Positions 1 through 38,335 of a DNA stretch of 45,722 bases are shown piece by piece (position 1 is the first letter of the stretch; every line of letters starts with the position of its first letter). The translations under genes and the position numbers were made by a program. The stretch lies in the NCBI GenBank assembly GCA_041302875.1, contig JBFYQI010000002.1, positions 1-45,722 of the forward strand, read 5' to 3'. Source of the stretch: Ignavibacteria bacterium (lineage in GTDB: Bacteria; Bacteroidota; Ignavibacteria; UBA10030). The notes beneath the pieces are model-generated. The model was not told the origin of the DNA and made no database searches. It worked only from the letters and a program-made list of their open reading frames with translations.

Positions 1-361
1 GATTGTAACCGATCTCATTCACGCGAGCGGACGCCTGCACATAATAATTGATATAGACCGACCTCTTCTCTGCCGCCAGGTAGAGGAGCATCCCTCCGCC
101 TCCGCCGATCCCTGAGCCATCTGGTTCGACGACGCCAATGGTGAATGCGGCTGCCACGGCAGCATCGACAGCGTTTCCACCTCGCTGCAGCATCTCGATC
201 GCCGCTTGCGAGGCCAGCGGATGCGCCGTCGTGGCCATCCCTCTGGTGCCGACAGCGACATCCCCCTTGCCAGCGATGCTCAGCTCTTGGGAGACCGAAG
301 GGCGTGCGAGGAGAGTAAGGGCAACAACAATACCGATGAGAGAACGGACTGCGTGCTTCAT
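1..361 (-). CDS. ggt: gamma-glutamyltransferase, N-terminal part only (gene runs off the left edge of the window)
   Basis: Not in the supplied ORF track because it is open at the window edge. Own translation from ATG at 361..359 gives MKHAVRSLIGIVVALTLLARPSVSQELSIAGKGDVAVGTRGMATTAHPLASQAAIEMLQRGGNAVDAAVAAAFTIGVVEPDGSGIGGGGGMLLYLAAEKRSVYINYY. This is a signal peptide followed by the conserved GGT N-terminal block (AHPLAS...GGNAVDAAVA...EP.SSGIGGGG). GGAG lies 7 nt upstream of the ATG. Confidence 0.75.
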   Translation of the reverse strand, partial: MKHAVRSLIGIVVALTLLARPSVSQELSIAGKGDVAVGTRGMATTAHPLASQAAIEMLQRGGNAVDAAVAAAFTIGVVEPDGSGIGGGGGMLLYLAAEKRSVYINYYVQASARVNEIGYN

Positions 362-396
362 GATGATGCTCCACTGGTCTATGTGGCCGATTCAAT

Positions 397-954
397 TCAC
401 TGGAAGAGCGCTGCGAGCGGCTTGGCCGCATCGGCGATCTTGTCAACGACGTCGATCGGCTTCTTGGCGTCCTTGGCGATGGTGCTGAAGAACCCGTCCT
501 CATCTCCCTGCTTGACGACGATGAGATGGTTCGCCGCTTCCGCCGCCATCTTGCAGAAGTCATCCGATTGTTGTCCGCGCCGCGGCTTGCCGCCAATGTG
601 CATCATCAACACCGGGATCTTCTTCGCCGCTGCCGCTTCGAGCAATTGCTTGATCCGCTTCAGCTCATCCTCGCGACTGATCCCCGCAGCCCCCAATCCC
701 TTCGAACTGAACCCCGGCACGACCACGAGGGTCTTGACGTTGTCGAGGTCGCCAGCCTTCGCCTGCGGTGCAGGTTTGGCAGCCAGATTCGCACGCTTGA
801 ACAGCATGGAGACGAGAGTGACATCCGCGCTCTGTCCGGCGGAGGTGACCAGGACGGGTGTCTCAAACTTCTTCCCCCCTTGTGCCGGTGCGATGCCCGC
901 GATGATCACGAGTGCGAGCAGGACGATTGCAGCTCGTTGGATGATGATATTCAT
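397..954 (-). CDS. secreted conserved hypothetical protein (185 aa)
   Basis: Track ORF 397..1320, trimmed to the internal ATG at 954. From there the sequence is MNIIIQRAAIVLLALVIIAGIAPAQ, a signal peptide. The upstream in-frame part is Arg-rich and overlaps the next gene. I recognise no catalytic motif. Confidence 0.55.
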   Translation of the reverse strand: MNIIIQRAAIVLLALVIIAGIAPAQGGKKFETPVLVTSAGQSADVTLVSMLFKRANLAAKPAPQAKAGDLDNVKTLVVVPGFSSKGLGAAGISREDELKRIKQLLEAAAAKKIPVLMMHIGGKPRRGQQSDDFCKMAAEAANHLIVVKQGDEDGFFSTIAKDAKKPIDVVDKIADAAKPLAALFQ

Positions 955-974
955 GGATCGTTCCCTTTCGTTCG

Positions 975-2123
975 CTATGGTTGTACCGGCGGCGGCGGTT
1001 TCAGGAACGCGCCGACGCCTTGTGATAAGAGTTCTGTGTAGGCGGGGAGACCTTCTAACATCAGCGGCGAATCGGGATACATCTCGTTGTATGCGGATAC
1101 AACCGCCGAAATGCCCGCAAGATGGCGGCCGACGCGCTTGGCAAGCGATTCTCCTTCCGCATCGTACGAAATGCGCATCCTTCCGACTTCCAATGCCGTT
1201 TGATACCGGATGTCCACGCCTCGAAGGATCAAAACGACGTCCGTCGGCCCGCGGAGTCGTCCCTGGATCGGATTGCTCGTCTCCATCAGGATGGGAAGCA
1301 CCGCGTGTCCGTCCCCCCACTCCCGGTGGCTCAGTCCGCGGAAATTCTGCGGCGAGATCTCGAGCGCATATTGCAGTCCCTCGAATTCGAGATTCAGCAC
1401 GGCCATTCCCCCCAGATCGCGCGCCTTCTCGTGAACAACGATCGCATTGATGATCGGGATCTCCGGTGCCGCCTCATGAAGGTCGAACGCCAGCGTCACT
1501 CGCTCGGTTTCCAGCAAGCGCATGATCCCGTTCGCGACCCGTTCCATGATCGAACCGTCCGAACGCCCCGGATAGGAGCGATTGAGATTCCGCGTTTCAT
1601 TCCCCGACAACTGCTGACCCGAAGGCCGGTGCAAATAGACCAACGGATCCGGCCAATGATCGAGAGGGTTCGCCCCGCGCGACCCGAATCGGAAGATCCG
1701 TTCGCCGCTGCTCGTGGGGACGCTGAATCGCTCCGGATATCCTTCGAGCGGTTCCGTTGCAGAGAACCCGCTGAGACACGCTTGGGGGATCACAAACACT
1801 CGGCCCTGAGCGACGCGCAAATTCTCGACCATCACGACCGTGGCAATGAATCCCGCCGGCTCGTTGGGATGCGTCCCGCCGAGAACGAGCATCGTCGGAC
1901 CGGGATTCCTGCTGTCATACAGATAGTACGGTGTGTCGCCGTTCGTTCCCGCAAGGTCCGGTGCATACTCGCTCAGAAGTCCCGTGCGTGAGAGTCCGTC
2001 CGATGGAATGATGAGATCCGGCGTCCGCATGCGGAGAAAGTCGCGAGCTGCGATCCCCGCGAGTATCAGCGCGCCGAACAGAAATCCGATCGCCGTCCAA
2101 TGATGTCGTTGCATGGTCTTCAT
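975..2123 (-). CDS. succinylglutamate desuccinylase/aspartoacylase (AstE/AspA, M14-like) family zinc deacylase with N-terminal TM anchor
   Basis: Track ORF 975..2312, trimmed to ATG at 2123 (MKTMQRHHWTAIGFLFGALILAGIAA, a TM helix). It has LVLGGTHPNEPAG (an HxxE zinc motif) and FDLHEA, typical of the AstE/AspA family. There is a 4-nt ATGA overlap with the upstream small ORF. Confidence 0.75.
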   Translation of the reverse strand: MKTMQRHHWTAIGFLFGALILAGIAARDFLRMRTPDLIIPSDGLSRTGLLSEYAPDLAGTNGDTPYYLYDSRNPGPTMLVLGGTHPNEPAGFIATVVMVENLRVAQGRVFVIPQACLSGFSATEPLEGYPERFSVPTSSGERIFRFGSRGANPLDHWPDPLVYLHRPSGQQLSGNETRNLNRSYPGRSDGSIMERVANGIMRLLETERVTLAFDLHEAAPEIPIINAIVVHEKARDLGGMAVLNLEFEGLQYALEISPQNFRGLSHREWGDGHAVLPILMETSNPIQGRLRGPTDVVLILRGVDIRYQTALEVGRMRISYDAEGESLAKRVGRHLAGISAVVSAYNEMYPDSPLMLEGLPAYTELLSQGVGAFLKPPPPVQP

Positions 2124-2266
2124 TTCACCTGGAGGATCCTGAGCAAGAGCGGAATGACGATGATGGCAAGCGCCAGTTGGAGCCGCCACTGTCGCTCCCG
2201 AACGAGTTCCCGGAACACGAGCGCGAGCACAATGCCCGCGATGACGACATAGATCCAATAGAGCAT
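2120..2266 (-). CDS. small two-helix membrane protein (48 aa), translationally coupled between permease and deacylase
   Basis: Internal ATG of track ORF 2120..2335 gives MLYWIYVVIAGIVLALVFRELVRERQWRLQLALAIIVIPLLLRILQVK. Its ATG overlaps the permease stop (TGATG at 2264-2268) and its stop overlaps the next ATG (ATGA at 2120-2123). Confidence 0.45.
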   Translation of the reverse strand: MLYWIYVVIAGIVLALVFRELVRERQWRLQLALAIIVIPLLLRILQVK

Positions 2267-3549
2267 CAGTACGTGAATCCTTTCGGAACAAGCGCCTCGA
2301 TCTCGGACGCAAAGATGATCATCAACACGCCCCACACAACCGCGGCGAGCGCGATCGGCAAGCTTTCCTTCAGAATTCGATAGTGGTTCTTCTCACCGAC
2401 GAGCTGCGCGGCGAACACACACAGCAAGGCCGGGGGCGGCATCAGATCGCCCACGCCGGCGATCAGGGAGAGTGCCGACGTGACCAGAATCTCGCTGCGG
2501 CCGAGGAAGACATATACGAGCGGAACGCCCAGCACGGACGAAGCGGCATAGGCAGAACCGAACGCCGGCATCATCAGCGCGATTCCCGCATACAACAGCG
2601 AAGGCGGCAACTGCAACGCAGAGACTGCGATCATCCCGCGCGTACCGGTCAACGTCATCATTTGCACGAACATGCCGACGCCGACCAGGATCCCCATCAC
2701 GGGCAACGCACCGCGGATCGCTGCACCCGCAACATCAAGCGGCTTGAATCGTTCCCCGGTTCCGAAACCCGAAAGTGCGCCGAGCATGAAGATGAGCGGC
2801 ATGCCGATATCGGGAACATACTGCGGAATCAATCGAATGGCGGCCATCAACCCGACGACAACCGCGATCGGGATGAAGAGCTTGACACCGTGTTTGCCAT
2901 GAACCGGGGCCGGGAGCTTCGCGAGCACCGCATCGCGGTCGATCGCGTGGACATAGCGGAGCCGGAAATACACCGCCATGCCGATCGCCAGCGGGACCGT
3001 CAGAATGAGCAGCGGAATCTCGAAGCCAATGAACGGCATATCCACCCCGCCGCCGATGATCATCACCGGGATGTTGATGGGGGGAGCAATCATCCCGAAC
3101 ACGGCAGCCATGGCGATGAACGAACCGACGGCGACCGCCGGGATCCCCATCGCCAGCAAGGCTGGAGTGACCAGCGCTCCGGTGGTGAGGATGCACGCGG
3201 AAGAGAGACCCGTCAGCATCCCGGGGAACATTACGAAGAAGACCATCACGATCATCAGCATCGTCGGCGAACGATGGAGGACGTGGATCATCCCGTAGCT
3301 GATGGTGCTCAGCGCGCCGGTTGCTTCGATGACCTTCATGAAGATCATGGCGGTTGCGATGATCAGAACGGCGTCGAGGTACCCAAAGGACCCTTCAACC
3401 AGATGGCGCACCGGGATGCCGTACCCACCGATCAACGCCCCCACGACGGACGCGAGCCCGAGCGCGACGCCGGACGGGAGCTTCCACCAAAAGACGCTTC
3501 CGGCGAAGGTTGCGAGCATGGCAAGGAGGATGATCAGTTCAATTTGCAT
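2266..3549 (-). CDS. DctM-like (TRAP large-permease / ion-transporter superfamily) permease, 427 aa
   Basis: Polytopic membrane protein. The block LTGLSSACILTTGALVTPALLAMGIPAVAVGSFIAMAAVFGMIAPPINIP resembles the DctM signature (SGSS.A...G....P.M...GY...A......G..G.IIPPS). No DctP or DctQ gene is recognisable nearby. Confidence 0.7.
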   Translation of the reverse strand: MQIELIILLAMLATFAGSVFWWKLPSGVALGLASVVGALIGGYGIPVRHLVEGSFGYLDAVLIIATAMIFMKVIEATGALSTISYGMIHVLHRSPTMLMIVMVFFVMFPGMLTGLSSACILTTGALVTPALLAMGIPAVAVGSFIAMAAVFGMIAPPINIPVMIIGGGVDMPFIGFEIPLLILTVPLAIGMAVYFRLRYVHAIDRDAVLAKLPAPVHGKHGVKLFIPIAVVVGLMAAIRLIPQYVPDIGMPLIFMLGALSGFGTGERFKPLDVAGAAIRGALPVMGILVGVGMFVQMMTLTGTRGMIAVSALQLPPSLLYAGIALMMPAFGSAYAASSVLGVPLVYVFLGRSEILVTSALSLIAGVGDLMPPPALLCVFAAQLVGEKNHYRILKESLPIALAAVVWGVLMIIFASEIEALVPKGFTY

Positions 3550-4441
3550 GGTCGATCCGCAACAATTCCGGCGTGTTCAAGGCAAGGAACTCCAGGATCG
3601 CATCGGCAAGCTTCGGCGCCAGCTCTTCACGCGCCTCTTGCGTCGTCCGCACCGTCTCCGGCAGCTCGATCTGGAATCCGAAGATGTTGAGCCCGTCATC
3701 GGCGGTGTGCCGGCGCGTGGAATACCCGCCCGCATAGAAGGTCTGATCATTCGGCTTGGGGTCTTCGGGAGACGGCGTCGCGGCGATCCCGCGCTTCGTC
3801 AACAGCGCGCCGAATCCGATGCTGTCGCGCAAGAGACGGGAATGTGCTGTTCCCTTGAGACGGATCAGATGCCACAGCGAGGAGACATCCGGGTACGGGA
3901 TATCGTCCAACACCGCGTCGTCGTTCGCCAGATCATCCGATGTGAGATTGTATCCGAGTTCCACGCGCGGGAGCTTGTTCGCGTGTCCGTGGAGATCAAT
4001 ATAGAGTCCGGTCCCGAATGTCGCCGAAACCGCTGCACGCGCAGAGTCGATGAATCCGTGATACTCTCTCCACGCCGTCTCCGTGAGCGGAGTCCCCTGC
4101 GCCGCCTCTCCGATATCGCGGTTCGGGTCCAGCTTGCGCCGCTTGAGACGGTTGATGATCACATGCGGGCGATTCCCCGTTCGCGCGTGCATCTCATCCG
4201 AGATCATCCGGGCAAGCTCCAGCGTCCCGAGGTCTGTGTAGAACACGCCGCGAGGCCGGTCGGGGAGAAGCTTCGGCGTCTCAAGTCCACCATGCGGCGC
4301 AGAAATGACGATGGGGAGAGTGCCGGGGATGTACTCAACGAACCGTCCCGTACCCCACTGTGTCTCTTGCGCCGCGAGGACGCCGACCCCGAACACCAAC
4401 ACAAGGGACAGGAATGCGATCGTCAACCGTTCTTTGATCAT
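3539..4441 (-). CDS. exported N-formylglutamate amidohydrolase (FGase) family zinc hydrolase, paralog 1
   Basis: Track ORF 3539..4471, trimmed to ATG at 4441 (MIKERLTIAFLSLVLVFGVGVLAAQ, a signal peptide). Motifs are ISAPHGG, INRLKRRKLDPNRD and YIDLHGH. It overlaps the permease start by 11 nt. Confidence 0.7.
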   Translation of the reverse strand: MIKERLTIAFLSLVLVFGVGVLAAQETQWGTGRFVEYIPGTLPIVISAPHGGLETPKLLPDRPRGVFYTDLGTLELARMISDEMHARTGNRPHVIINRLKRRKLDPNRDIGEAAQGTPLTETAWREYHGFIDSARAAVSATFGTGLYIDLHGHANKLPRVELGYNLTSDDLANDDAVLDDIPYPDVSSLWHLIRLKGTAHSRLLRDSIGFGALLTKRGIAATPSPEDPKPNDQTFYAGGYSTRRHTADDGLNIFGFQIELPETVRTTQEAREELAPKLADAILEFLALNTPELLRIDHAN

Positions 4442-4452
4442 GGGGATTCGCG

Positions 4453-5739
4453 TTAGAATGAAAGCTGCCATTCGAGCATCAGGCTGTTGATGGAGATCCG
4501 GTCCTCACTGGAGGTGATGGACCCGCCCCCGTCCAGATCACGGTCCGCATCGTTCGGCATGACGCGGGAGAACCGGAGCTGCAGCTGGGACTGCGTCGAC
4601 AGCGCATAGTAGATGCGCGCGGAAACCTCGTCGTCCATGCTGTTGATCCCGTCGTTGTCGACGTATTCCCCCACCTTCACATATTGAACCTGGAACCGTA
4701 TCTTCGGCAACGCGCGCGGGATGACGTAGAAACGCGTGTACCAAATGCGGCTTCCTTCCGCAACGAGAGAGTTGTGCGGATAATCCCCGCCGATCTCGCC
4801 GTCCACATAGCCTGCGCGTGATCCCCAGTACCAGCTCGGATGCGGCGGACTGAACTGCTCGATGTTCGTCGTGGACGCGTCGTCCCCTTCATACGCCGCG
4901 TAGCGGGTCTCCACCTTGATCGAGCGGAACGGCCCCATCCCCCAACGATAACTGATCCCGGCCATGTATCCGATCCCGCCTTTTTCAGGGAATCCCGGCG
5001 GCTGCTTGAACTGCTGATACGCTCCTTCGGCAAAGTAGGTCAGATCCTTGAATGCCACCTCGCCGTTCGCTCCCACGCCCGCGACGTACGTGTCGTTGTA
5101 CGTCCCTCGCGGACGCTGGAGGATGCCATAGGCCATCACGCTCTGGTTCATGATCATCGTACCTATTCGCGCCGCATAAATCTGATCCGAGCCCGGATCG
5201 GGATACAAACCGCTGGGACTCAGATTTTGACCGGTGATAGCGCCGAATAGCGACAAGGTGAAAGGATCGTAGAGGAAGTCGAGACGCAGACCGTCGAACT
5301 TGTTCAGCATGTAGTAGGATTCACCCCATGAGAGGCCATTCCCGATGGGAAATTGCTGGCGGCCAAGCCGCATGCGTACGACGTCGAAGAAGAAAAAGTC
5401 AGGCTCGGTGATCTCAGCGTACAGTTGACTGATGCCGAATCGCATCGGCCCCGTTCCGGCGATGTTGCGAACCGGTTGACCGGGGTTGTCAATGAGGGAG
5501 ATCAATTCCGTCGCAAAAACGGTATTCTCGCCCGCCTTCGTCTTCGCCCGGATGCGCGCAAGATAGCGCATGTAGTTCTCTTTTGCCCGGCTGTCCGCCG
5601 CCTCCTGAAACGAATCGCTGTACCATCGGACGCGGAAGTCCCCTTCCATCGAGAACTGCGCCGATGCCAGTGTCGGTCCGATCAGCCATGCGATCAGAAG
5701 GAAGACGAAGCGGCGTGTGGTGACCTTATCGCGGTTCAT
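4453..5739 (-). CDS. outer-membrane beta-barrel (porin-like) protein
   Basis: Signal peptide (FVFLLIAWLIGPTLASAQ). The sequence has alternating amphipathic strands rich in Y/G/R and ends in ...LMLEWQLSF, a C-terminal aromatic typical of OM barrels. The start is either ATG at 5739 or TTG at 5751; the TTG would give a TTGA overlap with the upstream stop. Confidence 0.65.
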   Translation of the reverse strand: MNRDKVTTRRFVFLLIAWLIGPTLASAQFSMEGDFRVRWYSDSFQEAADSRAKENYMRYLARIRAKTKAGENTVFATELISLIDNPGQPVRNIAGTGPMRFGISQLYAEITEPDFFFFDVVRMRLGRQQFPIGNGLSWGESYYMLNKFDGLRLDFLYDPFTLSLFGAITGQNLSPSGLYPDPGSDQIYAARIGTMIMNQSVMAYGILQRPRGTYNDTYVAGVGANGEVAFKDLTYFAEGAYQQFKQPPGFPEKGGIGYMAGISYRWGMGPFRSIKVETRYAAYEGDDASTTNIEQFSPPHPSWYWGSRAGYVDGEIGGDYPHNSLVAEGSRIWYTRFYVIPRALPKIRFQVQYVKVGEYVDNDGINSMDDEVSARIYYALSTQSQLQLRFSRVMPNDADRDLDGGGSITSSEDRISINSLMLEWQLSF

Positions 5740-5747
5740 GTGTGCAC

Positions 5748-7589
5748 TCAATTTGGTGTGTAGACAAGTCCGGTAAGCTGTGCATTCCCGATATTCGGAC
5801 CAGAGAAATATTGGAGCACGATCCCTGTCGGCGTCATCCGAAATACATGGTCGAAGTTGCCCGTGCTATTCGCGATCCAGAAATTGCTTCCGTCCCACGT
5901 GAGCCCGGTCGCAAATCGGTTGGATGTTGTTCCGCCCGGAGGCGTCGGCGTCGCGAACACGCCTGCCCACGTTGCGTTGGCGGGATTGTATGCGAACACA
6001 CTGTCGAGGGATGTGTCGTTGCAGTAGAGAGTTCCCGCGACGATCGCAATTCCACGCGGCTCGGCTCCCGGCGTGTTGACAGAATCCAGGATGGCTCCGG
6101 TCGTCGGATTCAGTTTGTAGATTCTTGCACTCCCGCTTCCGCTCACCGCCAGCCAGAGCGATCCGGAATCCCAAACGATGCCGCGCAGGGTTCCTGCAGT
6201 CGGCGGCGTGGAGAGCACGTTGAGCGCTGTGAGGGTTCCGGTGGTGTCTAGCTTGTACAATCGCTTGTCCGTTCCCGATGCGCAGAGCCAGAGATTCGTT
6301 CCGTCGAATGCGATGCCCTGCGGGCTTCCGGAGGACACACTCGTCGTCGGCCACGATTTGACGAGCAACGTATCCGCCGCACGTATCTTGTGGATCACAT
6401 ACCCGCCGCTCTGCTGGTCGGCAAGATACAGATGTCCGGCGAGCGGCGGCACCGGTGTCACCGCGAACGCCGTATCCGCGATAAGCACACGCCCATCGCC
6501 GTTGGTCAGGGTGACATTCCGTTTCGCGTATTCGGCATCGCTGGCGACGCTGATGTCGCAGCGCAATTGACCTGCGGTCAAGAACTGAGTCGCGATCGTC
6601 GAGATCCCCGCTCCGAAATCGACAGCAAGGGAGGGGCCGGGACGGAATCCTGTGCCGTACATGTCCACTTGAACATTGACGCCGCGCATCGCCGAATTCG
6701 GGACGATCGCCGTGAGGGTCAAGGGGATGGCCGTTCGCACATCCTGTGATGTCCAAGCGATCGGCCCCGGCTGACCGAACGGAAGATCCAGACGCTGTTC
6801 TTCTCTGCCGTTGTAGGAAAGCTTGTGCAAATGGTCTGCTGTGTTGCTGCTGTTCACTACCCAGAAATTCTTGCCATCGAACGTAATGCCGACCGGATAG
6901 ATGTAGGAAGTTCCCCGCGGAGGGATCGGCGCGGCGAACGCAGTATCGAATTGCGAGCGTTCAGTCCGGAATTTGTAGATTCGGTTCGTCGTGACATCTG
7001 TATAATAGAGTCCGACCTCTGCGCCGCGACCGTACGCATCGCCATTGGGTCCGACGTATGTCAGACCGCGCGGTTCTGGAGACGGGAGCACGAACTGGGC
7101 CAGGATCGAACCGTCTGCAGGATTGAGCTTGTACAGCGTCGGCGGCGTTTGGTAGGTGGACGATCCGCTGTTCAGGCTCCACAGACTCGAACCATCCCAT
7201 GCGAGGTCGCGCGTCGTCCCCTGCCTGCTCGGAGGAGCATCGAACACGTTGACCGCAACGATCGAATCTCCTCCCGCGTCCAGTTGATAGATCCGGTCAG
7301 CGTTGCCCGCGACGGAGACCCAGAGGTACGTCCCATCGAACGCGATCCCTTGCAGGCTCTCATCGTTTGTGATCGGCCGGGGATCCCAACGACGCAGCTC
7401 GCGCATCTGCGCGTCGAACTGGATGATGGAAACGGAGGCACGGTCGAGGAAGTAGAAGTATCCTCCCGCGGGCTGGAAGAGGTTTCCGGGTCCTTCGTCC
7501 AACTCCAGCACATTACAAGAGATGAGCATGGCCGCAACGGATGCCGCGACGATGAGCCCAACAAAGGAAAGTCGATGGATGGGTTTCAT
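5748..7589 (-). CDS. lipoprotein with two beta-propeller-like repeat regions separated by an IPT/TIG-like Ig domain
   Basis: Lipobox AAMLISC. A blade motif recurs: GIAFDGTYLWVS, DLAWDGSSLWSL, GITFDGKNFWVV, GIAFDGTNLWLC, GIVWDSGSLWLA, GLTWDGSNFWIA. The central stretch LTLTAIVPNSAMRGVNVQVDMYGTGF...VTLTNGDG looks IPT/TIG-like. Confidence 0.65.
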   Translation of the reverse strand: MKPIHRLSFVGLIVAASVAAMLISCNVLELDEGPGNLFQPAGGYFYFLDRASVSIIQFDAQMRELRRWDPRPITNDESLQGIAFDGTYLWVSVAGNADRIYQLDAGGDSIVAVNVFDAPPSRQGTTRDLAWDGSSLWSLNSGSSTYQTPPTLYKLNPADGSILAQFVLPSPEPRGLTYVGPNGDAYGRGAEVGLYYTDVTTNRIYKFRTERSQFDTAFAAPIPPRGTSYIYPVGITFDGKNFWVVNSSNTADHLHKLSYNGREEQRLDLPFGQPGPIAWTSQDVRTAIPLTLTAIVPNSAMRGVNVQVDMYGTGFRPGPSLAVDFGAGISTIATQFLTAGQLRCDISVASDAEYAKRNVTLTNGDGRVLIADTAFAVTPVPPLAGHLYLADQQSGGYVIHKIRAADTLLVKSWPTTSVSSGSPQGIAFDGTNLWLCASGTDKRLYKLDTTGTLTALNVLSTPPTAGTLRGIVWDSGSLWLAVSGSGSARIYKLNPTTGAILDSVNTPGAEPRGIAIVAGTLYCNDTSLDSVFAYNPANATWAGVFATPTPPGGTTSNRFATGLTWDGSNFWIANSTGNFDHVFRMTPTGIVLQYFSGPNIGNAQLTGLVYTPN

Positions 7590-7601
7590 GGGGTTCAGGA
7601 A

Positions 7602-8630
7602 TTATGGACCGTTCTTGATGCCAAACAGATCTGGCGTGTGTTCATACATTCGAAGTGCGTTCGCACTGCCGCATGATTTCGCTTCAACAAGCCGCGCGAT
7701 CGCTGTGATCTCTGCATCCGAAAACTTCACTTTCGAGAGCACGCGTTGTGTCACCTTCGCGGTCGAGAACCGCGCCCCGCATCCCGCGGGAAAGAGGACA
7801 TCCGCCATTCGCTCATTCGGATCGAGGATCTCCACATCGCTTCCGGTCGAGGACCGCATCGCCTCAGCGAAACGGTCGGCGACATATCCATAGTGTGTAC
7901 AACAAAGCCCGACGAGCGTTTTCATGGTCTTGCGTAACATCGCCCCTGCCGCTTCTGCCACATACAGATCGATCATCGTCTTCGCGACGTCGCCATCCGG
8001 ATCGCTCTGGATCTCTCCGGCCAAGTCGGGACACGCCTGCACCGTCATTCGGTCTTCGGCAAGACCCTCTGCACGGAGGCCGGCGCGATGCGAGTCTTCA
8101 CCAATGGTCGTCTCTGTTCCGAATAGAACGATGGTTGCGTCCTTCTCCTGGCGAAGGCGTTCTGCCATGAACTTCACGCCGATGTCCACAATGCCGACGA
8201 CTGGGATATCAGCCGTCCGCGCGAATGCCGTATGCGGATACACGACCGAGAGCGTGTTGCATGCGATCAGGATCGCGTCCGGATGGATCTTCGCGACCAT
8301 CCCGCGCAAGGCCTCAGAGAACACCGCCGCCTTTTCGTTCATCGACGGCATCGTGTTATATCCTCGTGCGGCGTCGGGAAGCGCGTTGGCGAAGACCAGG
8401 TCGATCGAACGGTAGCATGAAGTACGCCGTGCACGATGATCGATGTCCGCGCTCACCGAAAGACCGCCAAGACCGGAATCGATCACAAGGACGGTGATGG
8501 AATCCTTCCCGCGCAGGGCTGCAAGTCGTTGCTCCTGTTCACCCGAGGGCATGGCCACGGCTACGCCGCTGACCAGGACGAGCAGAATTCCGCACCATCC
8601 GATGTGCACGAAACACTTCCGTCGCTTCAT
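7602..8630 (-). CDS. Asp/Glu racemase family protein, glutamate racemase (MurI)-like, with N-terminal signal/anchor sequence
   Basis: VLVIDSGLGGLSV (MurI: DSGVGGLSV), and both catalytic Cys motifs IACNTLS and GLCCTHYGY (MurI: ACNTAS / GCTHYP). The N-terminus MKRRKCFVHIGWCGILLVLVSGVAVA is hydrophobic and signal-like. Confidence 0.75.
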   Translation of the reverse strand: MKRRKCFVHIGWCGILLVLVSGVAVAMPSGEQEQRLAALRGKDSITVLVIDSGLGGLSVSADIDHRARRTSCYRSIDLVFANALPDAARGYNTMPSMNEKAAVFSEALRGMVAKIHPDAILIACNTLSVVYPHTAFARTADIPVVGIVDIGVKFMAERLRQEKDATIVLFGTETTIGEDSHRAGLRAEGLAEDRMTVQACPDLAGEIQSDPDGDVAKTMIDLYVAEAAGAMLRKTMKTLVGLCCTHYGYVADRFAEAMRSSTGSDVEILDPNERMADVLFPAGCGARFSTAKVTQRVLSKVKFSDAEITAIARLVEAKSCGSANALRMYEHTPDLFGIKNGP

Positions 8631-8636
8631 GAATCC

Positions 8637-9815
8637 CTACTTGAGAAGAATCATTCGCCGCGTGAGACGCACTTCGCCCGACGTCATCGTGTAGAAGTAG
8701 ATCCCGCTAGGCATTTCGGACGCATCCCACCGCACCTCATGCCGCCCCGGCATCAGTTCTGCGTTCACCAGTACTGCTACTTCGCGCCCCAAGACATCGA
8801 AGACTCGCAGTTCCACTCTACTGACCACTGATGACTGGAAACTGATTACTGTCCCCGGATTGAACGGATTCGGATAGTTCTGCCCAAGCCCGGCCGTTCG
8901 AGGAACATGTGCATCCTCAGCCACGTCGGTTGGCGCGCCAAAGACCGCATTCATCGCCTCGACCGCCTGCAGCAGCTTGGAGTCGGTTGTTCGAATGGGG
9001 TAGTCATGCTCGATGTGAACGAACTTCTTTCCATTCGCGTTGGACCATTGCCCCTGAACATTCGACGTTGCTCCAAGCCGCCACGACTCGTTATACGTCG
9101 CTATGCTGAAGACGGTCGCCGTCATCTCCCGGGATTCATAATTCGATTCAAGCGTGGTCAATTCAGCAGGTGGATTCGTCGTGCCATTGCTGATAATGAC
9201 GTCCGCATAGCTCGCGTAATTGGGATTGGCCGCCTTGTTGAATCCATGGACCTGGATCGCTCGGAACGCTGAAATGGTCTTATGCACGGCGTGAAAGACC
9301 GTCCGCGTGCGGTGCGCCACGTCAGACGAGGAGTCTGTGTTCGCGTAGCGGTGTGTCCCCGCCATTTGGCACCATCGGGCACGCATGCGAAGGTACGCTC
9401 GAATTCCCAACTTCCATGTGTTCGTATCGAAGATTGGATGCGGAATCTCCATCGCGAGGTCATTGGTGCTTCGAGGATTGCGGATATACGTTCCCCATCC
9501 CCGCTGAATGGGATTGAGTTCACGCACGACGATCAGCGATTCCGCAACAACCGTGTCGATGAACGAGATCCATTCATAGCCGTATGGACTCAGCATCGCC
9601 GCAACGCTCGCGTAATTGTCCTGGCCGATCATGGCGATCACATTCTGGAAGGCGACCATCTGCGAGTCGACGGGAACAACGAATCCGTTCGAACCCGATT
9701 CCGGCATGCTGTTACGGATCTGCTGGCCGAGCTCGACGAGGTCTCCACGGACAACCGCCTGCGCCCAGAGAAATCCGGCAGGGACCATCATCAGCACAAG
9801 GATCAATCTCTTCAT
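8637..9815 (-). CDS. secreted protein with T9SS C-terminal sorting domain; N-terminal domain of unknown (possibly metallohydrolase) function
   Basis: Signal peptide MKRLILVLMMVPAGFLWAQA. The C-terminal ~80 aa (QNYPNPFNPGTVISFQ...VFDVLGREVAVLVN...PSGIYFYTMTSGEVRLTRRMILLK) is a classic Por secretion tail. His-containing motifs (EIPHPIFD, IQVHGF, VHIEHD) hint at metal binding, but I cannot assign a family. Confidence 0.65.
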   Translation of the reverse strand: MKRLILVLMMVPAGFLWAQAVVRGDLVELGQQIRNSMPESGSNGFVVPVDSQMVAFQNVIAMIGQDNYASVAAMLSPYGYEWISFIDTVVAESLIVVRELNPIQRGWGTYIRNPRSTNDLAMEIPHPIFDTNTWKLGIRAYLRMRARWCQMAGTHRYANTDSSSDVAHRTRTVFHAVHKTISAFRAIQVHGFNKAANPNYASYADVIISNGTTNPPAELTTLESNYESREMTATVFSIATYNESWRLGATSNVQGQWSNANGKKFVHIEHDYPIRTTDSKLLQAVEAMNAVFGAPTDVAEDAHVPRTAGLGQNYPNPFNPGTVISFQSSVVSRVELRVFDVLGREVAVLVNAELMPGRHEVRWDASEMPSGIYFYTMTSGEVRLTRRMILLK

Positions 9816-9856
9816 TGGGACTCCGGGATCAGATGAAGCATATCAACGCACTTCGT

Positions 9857-10765
9857 CTACTCTGCATGCCCATCATTGGCATTATAGTGATAGTCCAGAA
9901 ACCAGAGCATGGTTCGTGTCAATGCTTTCGCGTATGCGATCCGTTCTGCTTCCGACTCCCTCACGGAGAGCGGCGCTTCGACCTGAAGTCCGTCGATCAT
10001 TCCGCCGTCGCGAGAACCATGGCGTTCCAAGTTGTACCCTCCGGAGAAGAAGGGCTTGCCGCCGGGATCTGGATTGTTCGGACTCGGAACTGCGGGATAG
10101 CCATCGCGCTCGAGAATGCCCCCGAAGCTCGAGTCACCGCGGATCAAGCCAGCAAACGGCAACGGGGAACGATACGCCAGCGAACGAAGACTGCTCTTCG
10201 AAACGAATTCGAGAGCGTTGAGCGAGTCATCGGCGAGAACCAAATCGGAAGCCACAAGGAGATACCCGATCTCGGTGCGCTGAATCGCATGGCGATGTCC
10301 GTGCAGATCGATGTAGAGTCCGGCACCGAAGCGTCGGGCGACTGCGGTCTTCGCTGAATCAATGTACTGATGGTACGCTTCCCATGCTGCCATCATGGAA
10401 GGATCGTCCTGAGCGGCGTCGAACTGTTCCCGATTCGCATCAAGCTTCGAACGATGGAGCCGGTTGATGATCAGATACGGTCGGCGTCCCGTCCGTTCGA
10501 AGCAGAACTTCGAGATGTCGTTCCCCATTTCAAGCGTCTGGACGTCGTGATGCCCCTTCGTCCCCATCGTCCGATCAGGAACTCCTTCCGGCTGTTCGTA
10601 TCCTCCATGGGGAACCGAAATGATCAGCGGAAGATCCCCCGGATGAAAGTCAATGAATACGCTCGACCGTGCCCCCTCGGCTTCAAGCTCCTGCCCCAGT
10701 GCGCCAGAAAACGCGAGGGTGATTAGCAAGGGAATGAACCATATGTGACAGATGATCGTTCTCAC
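9857..10765 (-). CDS. exported N-formylglutamate amidohydrolase (FGase) family zinc hydrolase, paralog 2 (first gene of the operon)
   Basis: GTG start at 10765 followed by the signal peptide MRTIICHIWFIPLLITLAFSGALGQ. It has the same motif set as the 3539..4441 paralog: ISVPHGG, INRLHRSKLDANRE, YIDLHGH. GAGGAGG lies upstream of the start. Confidence 0.7.
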   Translation of the reverse strand: MRTIICHIWFIPLLITLAFSGALGQELEAEGARSSVFIDFHPGDLPLIISVPHGGYEQPEGVPDRTMGTKGHHDVQTLEMGNDISKFCFERTGRRPYLIINRLHRSKLDANREQFDAAQDDPSMMAAWEAYHQYIDSAKTAVARRFGAGLYIDLHGHRHAIQRTEIGYLLVASDLVLADDSLNALEFVSKSSLRSLAYRSPLPFAGLIRGDSSFGGILERDGYPAVPSPNNPDPGGKPFFSGGYNLERHGSRDGGMIDGLQVEAPLSVRESEAERIAYAKALTRTMLWFLDYHYNANDGHAE

Positions 10766-10801
10766 CAGCTTTCGGGATTCCTCCTCAATCCAGTCATTTG
10801 C

Positions 10802-10817
10802 GCAACTAATATGCCGC
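10802..10817 (-). promoter_or_regulatory. candidate sigma-54 (-24/-12) promoter for the 9857..10765 operon
   Basis: The minus strand reads GGCGGCATATTAGTTGCGCAAAT, i.e. GGCAT-N5-TTGC. Spacing is exactly that of the TGGCAC-N5-TTGC consensus, with the invariant GG and GC present. The -12 element lies ~37 nt upstream of the GTG start, and an NtrC-family activator gene is divergently adjacent. Confidence 0.4.
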
Positions 10818-10861
10818 CTTTCTCTACTGTTTTCTCGTTCGAATCGCTATATTCATCAAAG

Positions 10862-10882
10862 GGTGGGCCGTTTTCGCCCACC
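10862..10882. promoter_or_regulatory. perfect 7-bp inverted repeat with a 7-nt spacer (GGTGGGC-N7-GCCCACC), candidate activator (UAS) site
   Basis: Seen directly: ggtgggc cgttttc gcccacc. Its centre is ~55 nt upstream of the putative -24 element, in a divergent intergenic region where no terminator is expected. Confidence 0.3.
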
Positions 10883-10988: not shown

Positions 10989-12551
10989 ATGACTAGCGAA
11001 GGAATCATGCACATTCTGACTTCACGGGTCTTCCTGACGATCCTCGCCTCCCTTGTCATCGTTGCAGGGGTGTTTCTGGTCGCGAGCTATCAGCTCGATC
11101 ACTGGACCGAAACGATCGTCGAGACCAACACGGAACTCACAAAACAGACCGTCCAACGGATCGCTAACGCTTCCCGTCCGGTCCTTGATAGCCTTTCGTC
11201 CATCGGTCTCTTCCGCAAAGAAAATCTCACGAAGGAAGAATCGCGTGCGCTCGACACGCTGCTCGCCTCGATCGTCGAAGGTGCCGTCTCAACGATCATC
11301 GGCATGGAAGGCGGATTCTACTTTGCTCACGTGGACGAATTGCTCGGCTACTCGTGGCCCACATCGACGCCCCCCGCTCCGGCATATGGTCCTGCCCCCC
11401 GATCGTATCCCATCATTCGTGAACAGCTGATCGCCACGGTTCGTCAATCCCGTGCGCTCGTGGAGTACCACGAGTTCGATTTCGCAACATTCCCGCTGGC
11501 CACCGAGCCGCTGGTGGAGGACGGGGTCACCGTCGGCGCCGTGTGGGCTCGCATCCATGTCGAACGCGAACTCCCGTCGAGTGTTCTCGCCCGATGGCTG
11601 AACTACGGCATCGTGCTTTCGCTCGTCACTCTGTTCATCGTCTTTCTCATGTCGCTCCGCATGCGCGCGCGCATCGCCGCGATCCGCCATGGGCTCGAAC
11701 GGCTGCAGACAGATTTCGCCTACCGGCTTCCCGTGCAGCGCGGGGTCTTCGGTGCGATCACCAGTTCGATCAACGCGATGGTCGATTCGCGCGCGAGAGA
11801 GCAGCTCGAGCGGGAACAACTTGAACGCGATCTGCACCAACAGGATAAGATGGCGATGCTGGGCAAGCTCGTCGCCGGCGTGGCTCACGAGGTCAAGACT
11901 CCACTCGCCATCATCAAAACGCGTATCCAGCTGTGGCAGCAAGATCTGCGGAATCTCGGTCCGTCGGCGGAAGCCGGCGCCATCCTCTCCGAGGACACGA
12001 TCCAGATCGTTCTGAAGGAGATCAACCGGCTCTCCGGGTTGCTCAAGCGATTGCTGGTCTTCTCCAAACCCGTCGGCTCGAACCGCAGAAATGTGGACTT
12101 GAACAAGCTCGTCGACCAGACGGTTTCGTTCATCCGCGCCGAAGCGGACGAACGACAGATCGCGCTCACGGTCGTCGTGGACAACCATGTTCCTCATCTT
12201 TGGATCGATCCGCAGGCGGTCGAACAAGTACTGCTCAACGTATACGCCAATGCCATGGACGCCATGGCAGCCGGCGGCATAATGGAGATTCAGACCATGG
12301 TTGAATCCGCCAGCAACACCGCTTCGGTGTTCATTCGCGACACGGGGCACGGTATCCCCCCCGAAGTGAGGAACAAGGTCTTCGATCCGTTCTTCACGAC
12401 GAAGGAGCATGGCGCCGGGCTCGGGTTGTACATCTCTCAGGAGATCGTTCGTTCCCACGGCGGGACGATCGACTTCCGCCCCCGTGCCCAAGCCGGCACC
12501 GAGTGTTGCATTCGACTTCCCCTTCATACGCACGACACGAGGCAATCATGA
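10989..12551 (+). CDS. sensor histidine kinase (NtrB/AtoS-like) with N-terminal TM/periplasmic sensor region
   Basis: H-box AHEVKTPLAIIKTRIQLW, N-box LLNVYANAMDAM, G-boxes IRDTGHGIPPEV and KEHGAGLGLYIS. There are two TM segments. An alternative ATG lies at 11007. The stop overlaps the regulator start (ATGA). Confidence 0.85.
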   Translation: MTSEGIMHILTSRVFLTILASLVIVAGVFLVASYQLDHWTETIVETNTELTKQTVQRIANASRPVLDSLSSIGLFRKENLTKEESRALDTLLASIVEGAVSTIIGMEGGFYFAHVDELLGYSWPTSTPPAPAYGPAPRSYPIIREQLIATVRQSRALVEYHEFDFATFPLATEPLVEDGVTVGAVWARIHVERELPSSVLARWLNYGIVLSLVTLFIVFLMSLRMRARIAAIRHGLERLQTDFAYRLPVQRGVFGAITSSINAMVDSRAREQLEREQLERDLHQQDKMAMLGKLVAGVAHEVKTPLAIIKTRIQLWQQDLRNLGPSAEAGAILSEDTIQIVLKEINRLSGLLKRLLVFSKPVGSNRRNVDLNKLVDQTVSFIRAEADERQIALTVVVDNHVPHLWIDPQAVEQVLLNVYANAMDAMAAGGIMEIQTMVESASNTASVFIRDTGHGIPPEVRNKVFDPFFTTKEHGAGLGLYISQEIVRSHGGTIDFRPRAQAGTECCIRLPLHTHDTRQS

Positions 12552-13921
12552 GATCGGGACAAGTCGTCCTCGTCGTGGACGATCAGGAGTCCATGAGAAG
12601 AAACGTCAAGGACGTCCTGACGCGCGAGCATCTGCAGGTGGTGGAATCCTCCTCCGGAGAAGATGCTCTCCACCGCTTCCGAGCGCTCAATCCTCAACTC
12701 GTCCTGCTCGACATCAATCTTCCGGGTATGGACGGGATCTCCGTTCTCCGCGAAATGAAACGTCTGGAGCCCGACATTCCCGTTATCATATTCACTGCGT
12801 ACGGGACCAGCGAGCGCGCGATCGAGGCGATGAAGGGGGGTGCGCACGACTACCTTGAGAAGCCGTTCGAGCTGGATGAATTTCTCATCATCATCCGGCG
12901 AGGCCTCAGTTTTCGCGACTTGCTTTCCGAGGTCCGGCATCTGCGCTCGCAAGTCGCCCGCCAATCCGCTCCCACCACAGCGGAATCGATCGTCGGAACG
13001 AACGCCAAGATGCAGGAGATCTTCAAGCTGATCGGACGCGTTGCCCCTACGGACGCCACGGTGCTGATCGAGGGGGAGAGCGGAACAGGAAAGGAATTGG
13101 TCGCCGACGCCATCCAACGGCATTCTCTCCGTCCCGACGGGCCGTTCATCAAGGTCAATTGCGCTGCTCTCCCTGAGCATCTGCTCGAAAGCGAACTCTT
13201 CGGCCATGAGAAGGGGTCGTTCACCGGCGCCATTTCCCAACGACATGGCCGGTTTGAGCTCGCCCACGGAGGGACCATCTTCCTTGACGAGATCAATAAC
13301 ATGCCGGTCTCCCTCCAGATGAAACTCTTGCGCGTCCTCCAACAGCGCACCTTTGAACGCGTGGGGGGAAAGGAGACCCTGACCACGGACGTACGCATCA
13401 TCGCGGCGACGAACAAGGACATTGAGCAGGAGGTGAAAGCGGGACGATTCCGAGAAGATCTCTTCTACCGGCTCGATGTCATTCACCTGAAGTTGCCGAC
13501 CCTCCGCGACCGTGCGCAGGACATTCCCCTGCTTGTCGATCACTTCCTGGAGAAGTATGGTCAGGGGACGAAGGCGATCGTCGCGGCCGATGCGATGACA
13601 AAGCTCCGGACCTACCGATGGCCGGGGAATGTACGCGAACTCGAGAACACCATCCAACGAGCCGTCCTGTTGTCAGGAGGCAACCTGATCACGCTCGACC
13701 ATCTCCCCGTGACGCTTCAGGCGGCGATCGATCCCCCTCCCCTCCCTGAAGCGAATCAGGACGATATGGATTTTCACCGCATCGTTACGTCCGTCGAGAA
13801 GCAGCTCATCACAAAGGCCCTCCAGCGCACCCAGTGGAACCGGACGAAGGCAGCCGAACTCCTCCGGATTCACCGGCGTCTTTTATTCTCAAAGATCAAG
13901 CAGTACAAGCTCAAGGCGTAG
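12548..13921 (+). CDS. sigma-54-dependent response regulator (NtrC family: receiver + AAA+ + Fis-type HTH)
   Basis: Track ORF trimmed to ATG at 12548 (MRSGQVVLVVDDQESM). It has the receiver motif LLDINLPGMDG, Walker A GESGTGKE, the sigma-54 contact loop ESELFGHEKGSFTGA (GAFTGA-type) and a C-terminal HTH, NRTKAAELLRIHRRLLFSKIKQY. Confidence 0.9.
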   Translation: MRSGQVVLVVDDQESMRRNVKDVLTREHLQVVESSSGEDALHRFRALNPQLVLLDINLPGMDGISVLREMKRLEPDIPVIIFTAYGTSERAIEAMKGGAHDYLEKPFELDEFLIIIRRGLSFRDLLSEVRHLRSQVARQSAPTTAESIVGTNAKMQEIFKLIGRVAPTDATVLIEGESGTGKELVADAIQRHSLRPDGPFIKVNCAALPEHLLESELFGHEKGSFTGAISQRHGRFELAHGGTIFLDEINNMPVSLQMKLLRVLQQRTFERVGGKETLTTDVRIIAATNKDIEQEVKAGRFREDLFYRLDVIHLKLPTLRDRAQDIPLLVDHFLEKYGQGTKAIVAADAMTKLRTYRWPGNVRELENTIQRAVLLSGGNLITLDHLPVTLQAAIDPPPLPEANQDDMDFHRIVTSVEKQLITKALQRTQWNRTKAAELLRIHRRLLFSKIKQYKLKA

Positions 13922-15101: not shown

Positions 15102-15115
15102 TGTCGGTCCTCCGC

Positions 15116-18109: not shown

Positions 18110-18134
18110 ACTGCTCTCCTCAGAGGTCTGATAA

Positions 18135-20831: not shown

Positions 20832-20939
20832 GAGATCTTCCTGCAGGATAGGTGAGGAACAGAACAACATCAGACCGACCGCCGGAAGATGGTTCACATC
20901 CCGGCGGACGGCCTGGAGCGGAAGAAATTCAGGTTTGGA

Positions 20940-21995: not shown

Positions 21996-22120
21996 GATGA
22001 CCTCTCTCTTAATAATGAAGGATGTTGTGAATGGGTCGATGTAGGCAGACAGGGAGAACCAAGAAACATGCCCTGCGATTTCGCCGAAATCCGCCAGAAA
22101 TCGATTAGAGCTGAATCGAA

Positions 22121-22139
22121 GCGGGCTGTTCTCGCCCGC
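22121..22139 (-). terminator. candidate terminator hairpin after the GNAT gene
   Basis: Stem gcgggc / gcccgc (6 bp, 7-nt loop). On the minus strand it is followed by TTCGATTC. It lies ~90 nt downstream of the stop at 22230. Confidence 0.3.
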
Positions 22140-22229
22140 CAATCGGGAAAATCGGTCTCAGTCTTTCGGGGGCGCCTGCGGCAAGCGTACGGATATTCCT
22201 TGAACTTCGCAAGTCCTCCAGGGACTTCT

Positions 22230-37404: not shown

Positions 37405-37442
37405 CTGGAAGAGAGCAAGTCCCGCACAATTCGGGGTTGGGA

Positions 37443-37538
37443 TTAGTCGTGGCAGCCTGCGACGTTCTTCGACGTCTTGGCGCAGCACTGGGCCACGGCG
37501 GTTTCGGTTTTCGTGTGCTTCTTGATGAGAGACTTCAT
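37443..37538 (-). CDS. unannotated 31-aa Cys-containing small ORF, candidate precursor peptide (MKSLIKKHTKTETAVAQCCAKTSKNVAGCHD)
   Basis: Too short for the ORF track; found by hand translation of the 164-nt gap between the methyltransferase and rSAM genes. It has the strongest SD in the window (AAAGGAGGT, 5-nt spacer, ATG). It has a Lys-rich N-terminal half and a C-terminal half with three Cys. The stop is 38 nt before the rSAM start. Confidence 0.6.
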   Translation of the reverse strand: MKSLIKKHTKTETAVAQCCAKTSKNVAGCHD

Positions 37539-37568
37539 GAATACCTCCTTTCTCACTGCACGGCTCCG

Positions 37569-38240: not shown

Positions 38241-38286
38241 TGTGTGATGCACAAAATATGGGAAAGATTCGTGTCATTTTGGCACG

Positions 38287-38314: not shown

Positions 38315-38335
38315 GTTGTGGAGGTGATGGCATCA

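Follow-up and report, generated by a model that had tools for sequence, protein, structure and literature searches.

We analyzed a 45,722-nucleotide stretch of an Ignavibacteria bacterium genome (contig JBFYQI010000002.1 of assembly GCA_041302875.1; henceforth the window) that begins with a block of eleven genes, most of them encoding exported enzymes and other envelope proteins. In related contigs, these genes are physically linked to genes for poly-gamma-glutamate (PGA) synthase, and the linkage is conserved. From gene content and synteny, we lean towards reading the block as the envelope half of a PGA island in an Ignavibacteria-like diderm that bears a type IX secretion system (T9SS). The island would make, remodel and recycle the cell's own polymer, with trimming, degradation and recycling of PGA probably taking place outside the cytoplasm. 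It could equally consume PGA made by neighboring cells. The original prediction, made from the letters of the window alone, had described the block as a gamma-glutamyl polymer utilization locus. The link to a gamma-glutamyl polymer is now strongly supported, as the syntenic loci carry pgsB, pgsC and the gene for a TIGR04332 protein, and not hut or murein-recycling genes. The description as a utilization locus is incomplete, because the block is contiguous and co-directional with PGA synthase genes beyond the contig end, which falls within the gene for gamma-glutamyltransferase (GGT).

Gene content of the block

The block covers positions 1-10765 of the window. Its eleven genes are co-directional on the minus strand and are separated by gaps of ≤41 nt (35, 20, 11, 8, 12, 6 and 41 nt) or overlap (2120-2123, 2264-2268 and 3539-3549); this tight packing was already part of the original prediction, and its coordinates were correct. 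Its synteny in many independent contigs shows that the arrangement is not due to chance. The genes are as follows.

<1-361, minus strand: N-terminus of GGT, 120 aa; the gene is cut by the contig end and the full ortholog has 667 aa
397-954, minus strand: exported DUF6305 protein, 185 aa (PF19823, 180 bits)
975-2123, minus strand: AstE/AspA-like zinc amidohydrolase, membrane-anchored, 382 aa (PF24827, 34.6 bits)
2120-2266, minus strand: 48-aa protein with two hydrophobic (transmembrane) segments, translationally coupled to the permease and the AstE-like gene
2266-3549, minus strand: polytopic inner-membrane permease, 427 aa, distantly DctM/DcuC-like (PF06808, 25.8 bits)
3539-4471, minus strand: exported FGase-like zinc amidohydrolase 1 (PF05013, 30.6 bits); start probably at 4441 (300 aa)
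4453-5739, minus strand: putative outer-membrane beta-barrel of 428 aa that has a signal peptide and ends in Phe
5748-7589, minus strand: propeller lipoprotein, 613 aa (lipobox LISC)
7602-8630, minus strand: exported MurI-like cofactor-independent racemase, 342 aa (PF01177, 45.9 bits)
8637-9815, minus strand: T9SS-tailed protein, 392 aa, with a type A sorting domain at its C-terminus; its N-domain is henceforth referred to as T9N
9857-10765, minus strand: exported FGase-like zinc amidohydrolase 2, the first gene of the block (PF05013, 25.1 bits)

The start at 4441 is the more likely one for FGase-like 1, being the start called in the near-identical contig L008 (related contigs and loci are given by such handles). 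Profile searches assign most of the block weakly, and DUF6305 alone gives a strong match. The family calls made earlier were nonetheless right, and DUF6305 was the one family they had not named. The sequence features of all soluble block products include a signal peptide, a lipobox or a membrane anchor, among them the lipobox of the propeller lipoprotein and the transmembrane anchor of the AstE-like protein; the barrel ends in its terminal Phe. Export signals were thus seen for all the enzymes, as had been claimed.

Linkage to PGA synthase genes

The pgs genes lie outside the window. An exact look-up of the DUF6305 protein retrieved contigs of three NCBI assemblies that are 99.5-99.8% identical to the window and run past position 1. 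One of these, L008, is 99.5% identical to window positions 1-7715 and continues past position 1 into the full GGT gene and then pgsB; for the window itself, the linkage rests on this 99.5%-identical contig. The L008 PgsB scores 227.9 bits against TIGR04012 (cutoff 222.7) although its gene is cut at the contig end. No terminator-like site was found in the 186-nt gap between GGT and pgsB, in scans for terminators and promoters that we judged uninformative.

The synthase genes are more complete elsewhere. In L014 and L015, PgsB, PgsC and TIGR04332 are all at or above their cutoffs. Four more distant contigs encode PgsC above the TIGR04011 cutoff and TIGR04332, "poly-gamma-glutamate system protein", at 250-272 bits (cutoff 100). 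Their genes are arrayed in the order permease, 48-aa protein, AstE-like protein, DUF6305, GGT, zero to two other genes, PgsB, PgsC and TIGR04332. The same array as in the window-type island is found in L014-L017 and in the P0023 locus. A single contig of 189 kb holds the whole set in one direction, after a divergent kinase/regulator pair: a 339-aa protein, T9N, propeller, barrel, permease, 48-aa protein, AstE-like protein, DUF6305, GGT, PgsB and PgsC.

We then quantified the synteny. A DUF6305-anchored metagenome scan gave 80 loci, on which the window and pgs proteins were mapped by tblastn. The main subset comprises the 30 loci with ≥6 kb downstream of DUF6305, where the partners were detected as follows.

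AstE-like protein: 29/30 surveyed loci
Permease: 28/30 surveyed loci
GGT: 26/30 surveyed loci
PgsB: 27/30 surveyed loci
PgsC: 28/30 surveyed loci
TIGR04332: 28/30 surveyed loci

DUF6305, which accompanies pgsB, pgsC and TIGR04332 in 27-28 of these 30 loci, is therefore a core partner of the synthase. PgsA is absent, with TIGR04332 in its place. A second subset, the 13 loci with ≥9 kb on both sides, contains the FGase-like gene in 9, the racemase in 8, the kinase/regulator pair in 3 and the barrel/propeller pair in 2. Linkage to the synthase is tightest for GGT, DUF6305, the permease and the AstE-like protein and looser for the FGase-like and T9SS-tailed proteins. Around the core, the recurrent accessories are the racemase, FGase-like proteins, T9SS cargo, the barrel/lipoprotein pair, a TonB-dependent receptor and a sigma-54 two-component system. 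Accessories can also sit directly against the synthase genes: in L077, L084 and L088 the racemase gene immediately precedes pgsB and an FGase-like gene immediately follows that for TIGR04332.

Two gene orders were observed, that of the window type and, in more distant relatives, GGT, DUF6305, permease, AstE-like protein, PgsB, PgsC and TIGR04332. That two orders occur suggests that linkage has been selected for and is not simply inherited from a recent common ancestor. Some islands also hold genes of amino-acid metabolism, between GGT and pgsB or just past the pgs genes, for example Aminotran_5 and DHDPS genes (L017:12864-14924), or two OTCase genes, an amino-acid kinase and a class III aminotransferase (L014:15550-19657).

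GGT and the exported racemase

The GGT part inside the window matches PF01019 with 61 bits on 120 aa. The full ortholog (L008:7355-9358) reaches 449 bits against TIGR00066 (cutoff 357.85), which is equivalog level, and its catalytic TTH (residue 487) coincides in the alignment with the small-subunit start. Compared with the E. coli enzyme, an 11-residue deletion falls exactly at the lid loop, whereas only single-residue gaps separate it from B. subtilis GGT. The lid-less B. subtilis GGT and CapD accept PGA, and the lack of the lid loop, as in the PGA-degrading B. subtilis enzyme, supports the link to a gamma-glutamyl polymer. The protein scores higher against true GGTs (~345 bits) than against CapD (181 + 80 bits), and an insertion of ~100 residues (about 380-486) separates its large-subunit core from the catalytic Thr.

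The racemase exceeds the cutoff of 31 bits for Asp_Glu_race (PF01177). Against the MurI equivalog TIGR00067 it scores 58.4 bits and does not reach the cutoff of 146.65. Its PDB matches are glutamate racemases throughout, and the DSGxGG, CNT and CTHY motifs align (to 1b73). The catalytic Cys and DSGxGG motifs are kept in 130 of 135 racemase relatives. Among 1.84 billion representatives, the search gave 917 hits in total; 255 cluster representatives at E ≤ 1e-30 form a clade separate from the housekeeping MurI. All 13 cluster-linked orthologs with a readable N-terminus have a signal peptide or lipobox, three of them being lipoproteins. Judging from these leaders, the racemase should act in the periplasm. 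The clade (window 7602-8630, hits P0377-P0526) has both exported and leaderless members: the 135 best matches with the N-terminal motif include 43 with a hydrophobic leader and at least 71 with none. We found no paper describing a periplasmic glutamate racemase, and we know of no earlier description of an exported cofactor-independent racemase.

Zinc hydrolase candidates

Four block proteins are zinc-hydrolase candidates (the two FGase-like proteins, the AstE-like protein and T9N), and all four keep His, Asp/Glu, His and Glu motifs. FGase-like 1 lies above the PF05013 cutoff of 28.9 bits, with a match that covers only positions 2-70 of the 219 in the profile. FGase-like 2 falls below this cutoff and is its paralog (41% identical). 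Both retain the PHGG, DxNR and DLHG motifs and a late Glu; the residues invariant in the family are H60, D80, R111, D115, N117, R118, D159, H161 and E269 of FGase-like 1. A profile built from 43 FGase-like relatives found no FGase structure in the PDB by sequence. The wider family is large, and its members are often fused to Big_1, Big_2 or T9SS domains. Its substrate range is probably wider than PGA, because exported homologs in other phyla (L005, L099 and L100) stand alone in other contexts, one near a GH25 lysozyme gene and two near genes for an SDF symporter and a large zinc protease.

The AstE-like protein exceeds the AstE_AspA_cat (PF24827) cutoff of 25 bits, and its best PDB match is 2qj8, of the aspartoacylase family. 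Of 51 orthologs, 43-51 retain the motifs H85-x-x-E88, DLH216E and E281. Matches to Csd4/Pgp1-type proteins were far below threshold (Peptidase_M99, E = 0.02; PDB 4wcm, E = 0.04).

The sole Pfam match of the T9SS-tailed protein is to Por_Secre_tail (38.3 bits), and T9N itself has none. About 60 full-length homologs were found, unannotated except for the sorting domain, with invariant H126, D130, R156, H190 and E269. Searches of the PDB with sequences and profiles of the T9N and FGase-like families returned nothing useful. With the model of the full-length protein, Foldseek returned only Ig-like matches to the sorting domain, and the N-domain was then run alone. Its AlphaFold model is confident (predicted local distance difference test score, 96.6; predicted template modeling score, 0.93). 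The top matches were 2q7s, 2qj8, 8v3o and 2odf; by type, the best matches comprise FGase structures (2q7s and 2odf), an aspartoacylase-family protein (2qj8), the deglutamylase CCP5 and M14-like proteins, with E of 1e-4 to 1e-3 and TM-scores of only 0.38-0.45. H126, D130, H190 and E269 follow strands equivalent to those that bear the zinc ligands and the catalytic Glu in the FGase/AstE/M14-type fold. Candidates for the metal ligands that the original prediction had looked to in the 8637-9815 protein are present as invariant His, Asp, His and Glu.

PghP aside, the structures nearest to the PGA hydrolase PghL were reported to be 2odf and 2q7s (PMC6506827), and PghP is a carboxypeptidase-A-like zinc enzyme (PMC4497714). 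The PghP structure 3a9l was not among the top 50 Foldseek matches of the T9N model. On the strength of this model, T9N is best described as a new family in the FGase/PghP structural neighborhood, with a predicted zinc-hydrolase fold of the FGase/AstE/M14 type. We do not file it as a PghP member because it has no PF05908 match and because the T9N and FGase-like profiles are not significantly related.

T9N-like domains occur in other proteins as well. Large T9SS-secreted proteins of 1358-1430 aa, encoded in related loci (L014:3091-7383, L017:1001-5077 and L098:17608-21284) and absent from the window, open with a T9N-like domain (24-25% identical), after which come an Ig-like domain and Peptidase_M23. 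A scan of genome contigs, swamped by the NYPNPFNP tail motif, yielded only two very distant T9N relatives (22% identity), both on Candidatus Cloacimonadota contigs (L006:10001-10588 and L007:926-1624).

DUF6305, permease and the 48-aa protein

The permease exceeds the DctM cutoff of 23.8 bits with 122 of the 413 profile positions covered; its DcuC match is weak, and it had no sequence match in the PDB. We considered a tripartite ATP-independent periplasmic (TRAP) transporter of the DctPQM type and rejected it: no DctQ or DctP profile match was found, and the partners of the permease are the 48-aa and DUF6305 proteins. From its sequence and setting, we presume the permease to be a carrier for glutamate or small gamma-glutamyl compounds. 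The 48-aa gene is conserved beside the permease in many loci, and gene calls include it in L008-L013 and the P0023 locus. We also considered whether the protein might be PgsE/CapE-like; its profile search, in a set that held no profile for that type, gave no match. For DUF6305, our literature search found no paper. Its profile showed a 35-residue likeness to dihydropteroate synthase in the PDB (E = 0.003), which we judged to be a local motif resemblance.

Outer-membrane pair, regulators and upstream extension

The propeller lipoprotein has two homologous repeat-rich halves flanking an Ig-like domain. We read the halves by eye as beta-propeller blades, a reading that no fold or profile match confirms; neither the propeller nor the barrel has a Pfam match, and the barrel has none in NCBIfam. 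In relatives, the barrel gene is always paired with the propeller gene. Because the pair occurs twice in the genome represented by L003 (1840-4984 and 11182-14345), each time after T9SS-tailed genes, it may be an outer-membrane module that can be used repeatedly and is not confined to the PGA island.

Upstream of the block lie a two-component system, a candidate promoter element and further envelope genes.

10802-10816, minus strand: candidate sigma-54 -24/-12 element CGGCATattagTTGC (GG-N10-GC, two mismatches), 37-51 nt upstream of the first gene
10989-12551, plus strand: sensor histidine kinase with a periplasmic loop (HisKA, HATPase_c), divergent from the block
12503-13921, plus strand: NtrC/AtoC-type sigma-54-dependent response regulator (Response_reg; Sigma54_activat, 245 bits; HTH_8)
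14082-15227, minus strand: PorV/PorQ-family outer-membrane protein (NF033709, 183 bits; cutoff 90)
15116-18286, minus strand: protein of ~1000 aa with a T9SS-type C-terminus that matches PorZ weakly; the start of the reading frame is uncertain
18135-20897, minus strand: TonB-dependent outer-membrane receptor with a CarboxypepD_reg N-domain
20940-22142, minus strand: T9SS-tailed protein of 400 aa (Por_Secre_tail)

The kinase/regulator pair stands beside the cluster in at least seven loci (L001, L047, L051, L068, L070, L097 and the P0023 locus). Sigma-54 control of the block, as the original prediction had proposed, is plausible: exact TGGYAY-N5-TTGC sites are found 75-100 nt upstream of the first block gene in L001 and L003. 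The same does not hold for the site of the window itself, which is at chance level.

The genes at 14082-22142 are conserved beside the PGA island in L015, L017, L024, L097 and L098, which indicates that the island extends beyond the block and past the two-component genes. The PorV/PorQ-family protein is 64-70% identical, and the ~1000-aa protein 66-68% identical, to products of cluster neighbors in L015 and L098. The receptor is 72% identical to the one preceding the cluster in L098, and the 400-aa protein is 54% identical to the product of a gene inside the clusters of L017 and L024. The counterparts of the first three genes directly precede the racemase and T9N genes in L098 or the propeller gene in L015.

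Three further observations were made in passing. Related islands contain a gene, absent from the window, for a T9SS-secreted G8-domain protein of 790-948 aa (L001:16958-19330, L098:14647-17493 and L014:477-2966). The window also contains a 1640-aa open reading frame without a Pfam match (27238-32160). The minus strand of the window encodes, side by side at 36091-39604, a radical-SAM protein, a methyltransferase and a D-Ala-D-Ala-ligase-like ATP-grasp protein.

Proposed pathway and alternative explanations

The gene set suggests the following pathway. PGA would be synthesized at the inner membrane by PgsB, PgsC and TIGR04332, and outside the cytoplasm the polymer would be trimmed and, when needed, broken down. 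At the cell surface, the T9SS-secreted FGase-fold enzyme (T9N) could cut PGA into fragments, whose route across the outer membrane may be either the barrel/lipoprotein pair or the TonB-dependent receptor. Once in the periplasm, they would lose N-terminal gamma-glutamyl units to the lid-less GGT, while the FGase-like and AstE-like proteins, by family N-acyl-glutamate-type amidases, would free C-terminal or internal glutamate. The exported racemase would interconvert D- and L-glutamate, and the permease would take glutamate back up into the cell. The NtrC-type regulator may switch the set on via a sigma-54 promoter.

Several results weigh against this reading of the block as a make-remodel-recycle system. 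The T9SS-tailed gene and the barrel/propeller pair are present in a minority of loci only, and FGase-like relatives without pgs genes in other phyla indicate that this family is not PGA-specific. None of the four hydrolases (T9N, FGase-like 1, FGase-like 2 and the AstE-like protein) matches PF05908, the PghP-type profile on which the original prediction had proposed to check them, even at E ≤ 10. For T9N, the TM-scores of the structural matches are low, and its comparison with the FGase-like profiles (hhalign, with T9SS tails trimmed) was not significant, at a probability of 7%; the untrimmed comparison was inflated by the common T9SS tails. The sigma-54 consensus occurs 38 times in the window against 35.7 matches expected, and the site at 10802-10816 is no better than chance. 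Finally, a purely catabolic system would have just as much use for a periplasmic racemase.

Among the alternatives, the one that survives best is that the exported proteins are biosynthetic accessories and not degraders. The barrel/lipoprotein pair would then export PGA, for which a diderm cell needs an outer-membrane route, and anchoring or sizing of the polymer would fall to the GGT as a CapD-like transpeptidase. The D/L composition would be determined outside the cytoplasm by the racemase; the zinc enzymes would be limited to trimming, and the synthase would receive glutamate through the permease. The very tight linkage of GGT, AstE-like protein, DUF6305 and permease to the synthase fits these roles, as does the lack of PgsA. 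CapD is moreover a detectable relative of the block GGT, and in B. anthracis this GGT-family enzyme is part of the cap operon. We nevertheless consider this explanation unlikely. The GGT is nearer to true GGTs than to CapD and passes the GGT equivalog cutoff, the barrel/propeller pair is missing from most loci, and four hydrolase paralogs together with a TonB-dependent importer exceed the needs of trimming. In addition, PgsB uses ATP in the cytoplasm, and a periplasmic racemase cannot supply its substrate.

We hold it rather more doubtful that the block is, in line with the original prediction, a purely catabolic foraging locus, comparable to a polysaccharide utilization locus (PUL), for exogenous gamma-glutamyl polymers or peptides such as the PGA of other bacteria, folyl-polyglutamates or glutathione-like compounds, with the pgs genes functionally separate. 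Its make-up is indeed PUL-like (TonB-dependent receptor, T9SS cargo, periplasmic hydrolases, permease and its own two-component system), the enzymes are all exported, and salvage of D-glutamate would suit an exported racemase. This explanation does not account for pgsB, pgsC and TIGR04332 being adjacent and co-directional in nearly all of the surveyed loci and in two gene orders, nor for their interleaving with racemase and FGase-like genes in some loci. The gap between GGT and pgsB in L008, in which no terminator-like site was seen, also speaks against functional separation.

Recycling or scavenging of the peptidoglycan stem peptide (L-Ala-gamma-D-Glu-meso-diaminopimelate), with the zinc enzymes as MpaA/Csd4-like amidases and the racemase converting D-glutamate, appears very improbable. 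It can draw on the AstE-like matches to Csd4/Pgp1-type carboxypeptidases, on the fusion of T9N-like domains to Peptidase_M23 in related loci and on the one FGase-like homolog near a GH25 lysozyme gene. Those Csd4-type matches are far below threshold, the conserved partner is PGA synthase, and no other murein-recycling genes, such as AmpG, AmpD, NagZ, Ldc or Mpl types, were seen in any locus. Histidine catabolism was dismissed, as no hut genes occur in any locus.

A bolder proposal can be made, which we put forward as an improbable one. The exported racemase might act on glutamate or on gamma-glutamyl chains and so set the stereochemistry of PGA outside the cytoplasm, and DUF6305, the 48-aa protein and the permease might form a new three-part uptake system for glutamate or gamma-glutamyl peptides.

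Comparison with known systems

In Bacillus, the PGA synthase operon adjoins a depolymerase gene (pgdS or capD), and GGT degrades PGA in starvation, releasing D- and L-glutamate. The island resembles B. subtilis pgsBCAE-pgdS with ggt and B. anthracis capBCADE in coupling a PgsB/PgsC-type synthase to gamma-glutamyl-cleaving enzymes that include the GGT family. Further common features are a lid-less GGT, D/L-glutamate interconversion and a polymer that may be re-used as a glutamate reserve. The differences are considerable. The host of the island is a diderm of the Fibrobacterota-Chlorobiota-Bacteroidota (FCB) type, TIGR04332 replaces PgsA and there is no NlpC/P60 PgdS; degradation would instead fall to FGase-like and AstE-like proteins and to a new, T9SS-secreted relative by fold, and the racemase is exported, not cytoplasmic. 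The island also adds DUF6305, an ion-transporter-type permease with its 48-aa partner, outer-membrane parts and a sigma-54 two-component regulator.

The individual enzymes likewise depart from their nearest characterized relatives. With PghP/PghL (PF05908; PDB 3a9l), the candidate hydrolases would share a zinc carboxypeptidase-like alpha/beta fold, a His/acidic/His site and a distal Glu, whereas the island proteins are larger, have an H-x3-D spacing and extra N-terminal elements, and lack a PF05908 match. HutG (PF05013, TIGR02017) and AstE/AspA, groups that hydrolyze N-acyl-glutamate or N-acyl-aspartate amide bonds, are related at the family or near-family level through the PHGG, DxNR and DLHG or HxxE...H...E motifs. 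Against the cutoffs of these subfamilies the island proteins score low (15.8 vs 278.75 for HutG, TIGR02017; 34 vs 403 for DoeB), and they are exported and have no histidine or arginine catabolic context. The racemase shares the DSGxGG, CNT and CTHY catalytic motifs of MurI but belongs to a separate clade, stays below the TIGR00067 cutoff and carries a signal peptide or lipobox.

Two analogies come from polysaccharide systems. Bacteroidota PULs likewise work with outer-membrane passage, periplasmic processing enzymes and a regulator of their own. The alginate system, with the AlgE barrel, the periplasmic epimerase AlgG and the lyase AlgL, encodes synthesis, periplasmic epimerization and a degrading enzyme together. 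Unlike in both, the island substrate would be a polyamide and not a polysaccharide, and no homology to Alg proteins was found. The island receptor is weakly SusC-like (69 vs 368 bits, TIGR04056), and no SusD-like gene was found.

PGA synthase genes have already been noted in FCB-related metagenome-assembled genomes (PMC9324843). Existing NCBIfam models would also assign names to PgsB, PgsC and TIGR04332. Our literature search found no work linking polyglutamate metabolism to Ignavibacteria. The coupling of synthase and depolymerase is known from Bacillus, several island components are uncharacterized, and the exported racemase is the truly unusual feature.

Implications

To our knowledge, nearly everything known of PGA biology comes from Bacillus and a handful of pathogens, and the way diderm cells handle the polymer, from its export, sizing and degradation to its D/L composition, is essentially unstudied. 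The island provides a defined and widely conserved gene set for this in FCB-type environmental bacteria. Among its elements are DUF6305, for which no literature was found, a new T9SS-secreted member of the FGase/PghP neighborhood, a lid-less GGT with a 100-aa insertion and an exported racemase. The interest of the candidate new PGA depolymerases lies in the processing of PGA and the removal of PGA capsules, and extracytoplasmic glutamate racemization becomes directly testable. If the stereochemistry of the polymer were set or reset in the periplasm, the process could be likened to that of alginate, which is epimerized after polymerization. Should uptake also be of the three-part kind, then together with three zinc hydrolase families new to PGA this would be a PGA pathway without a characterized counterpart.

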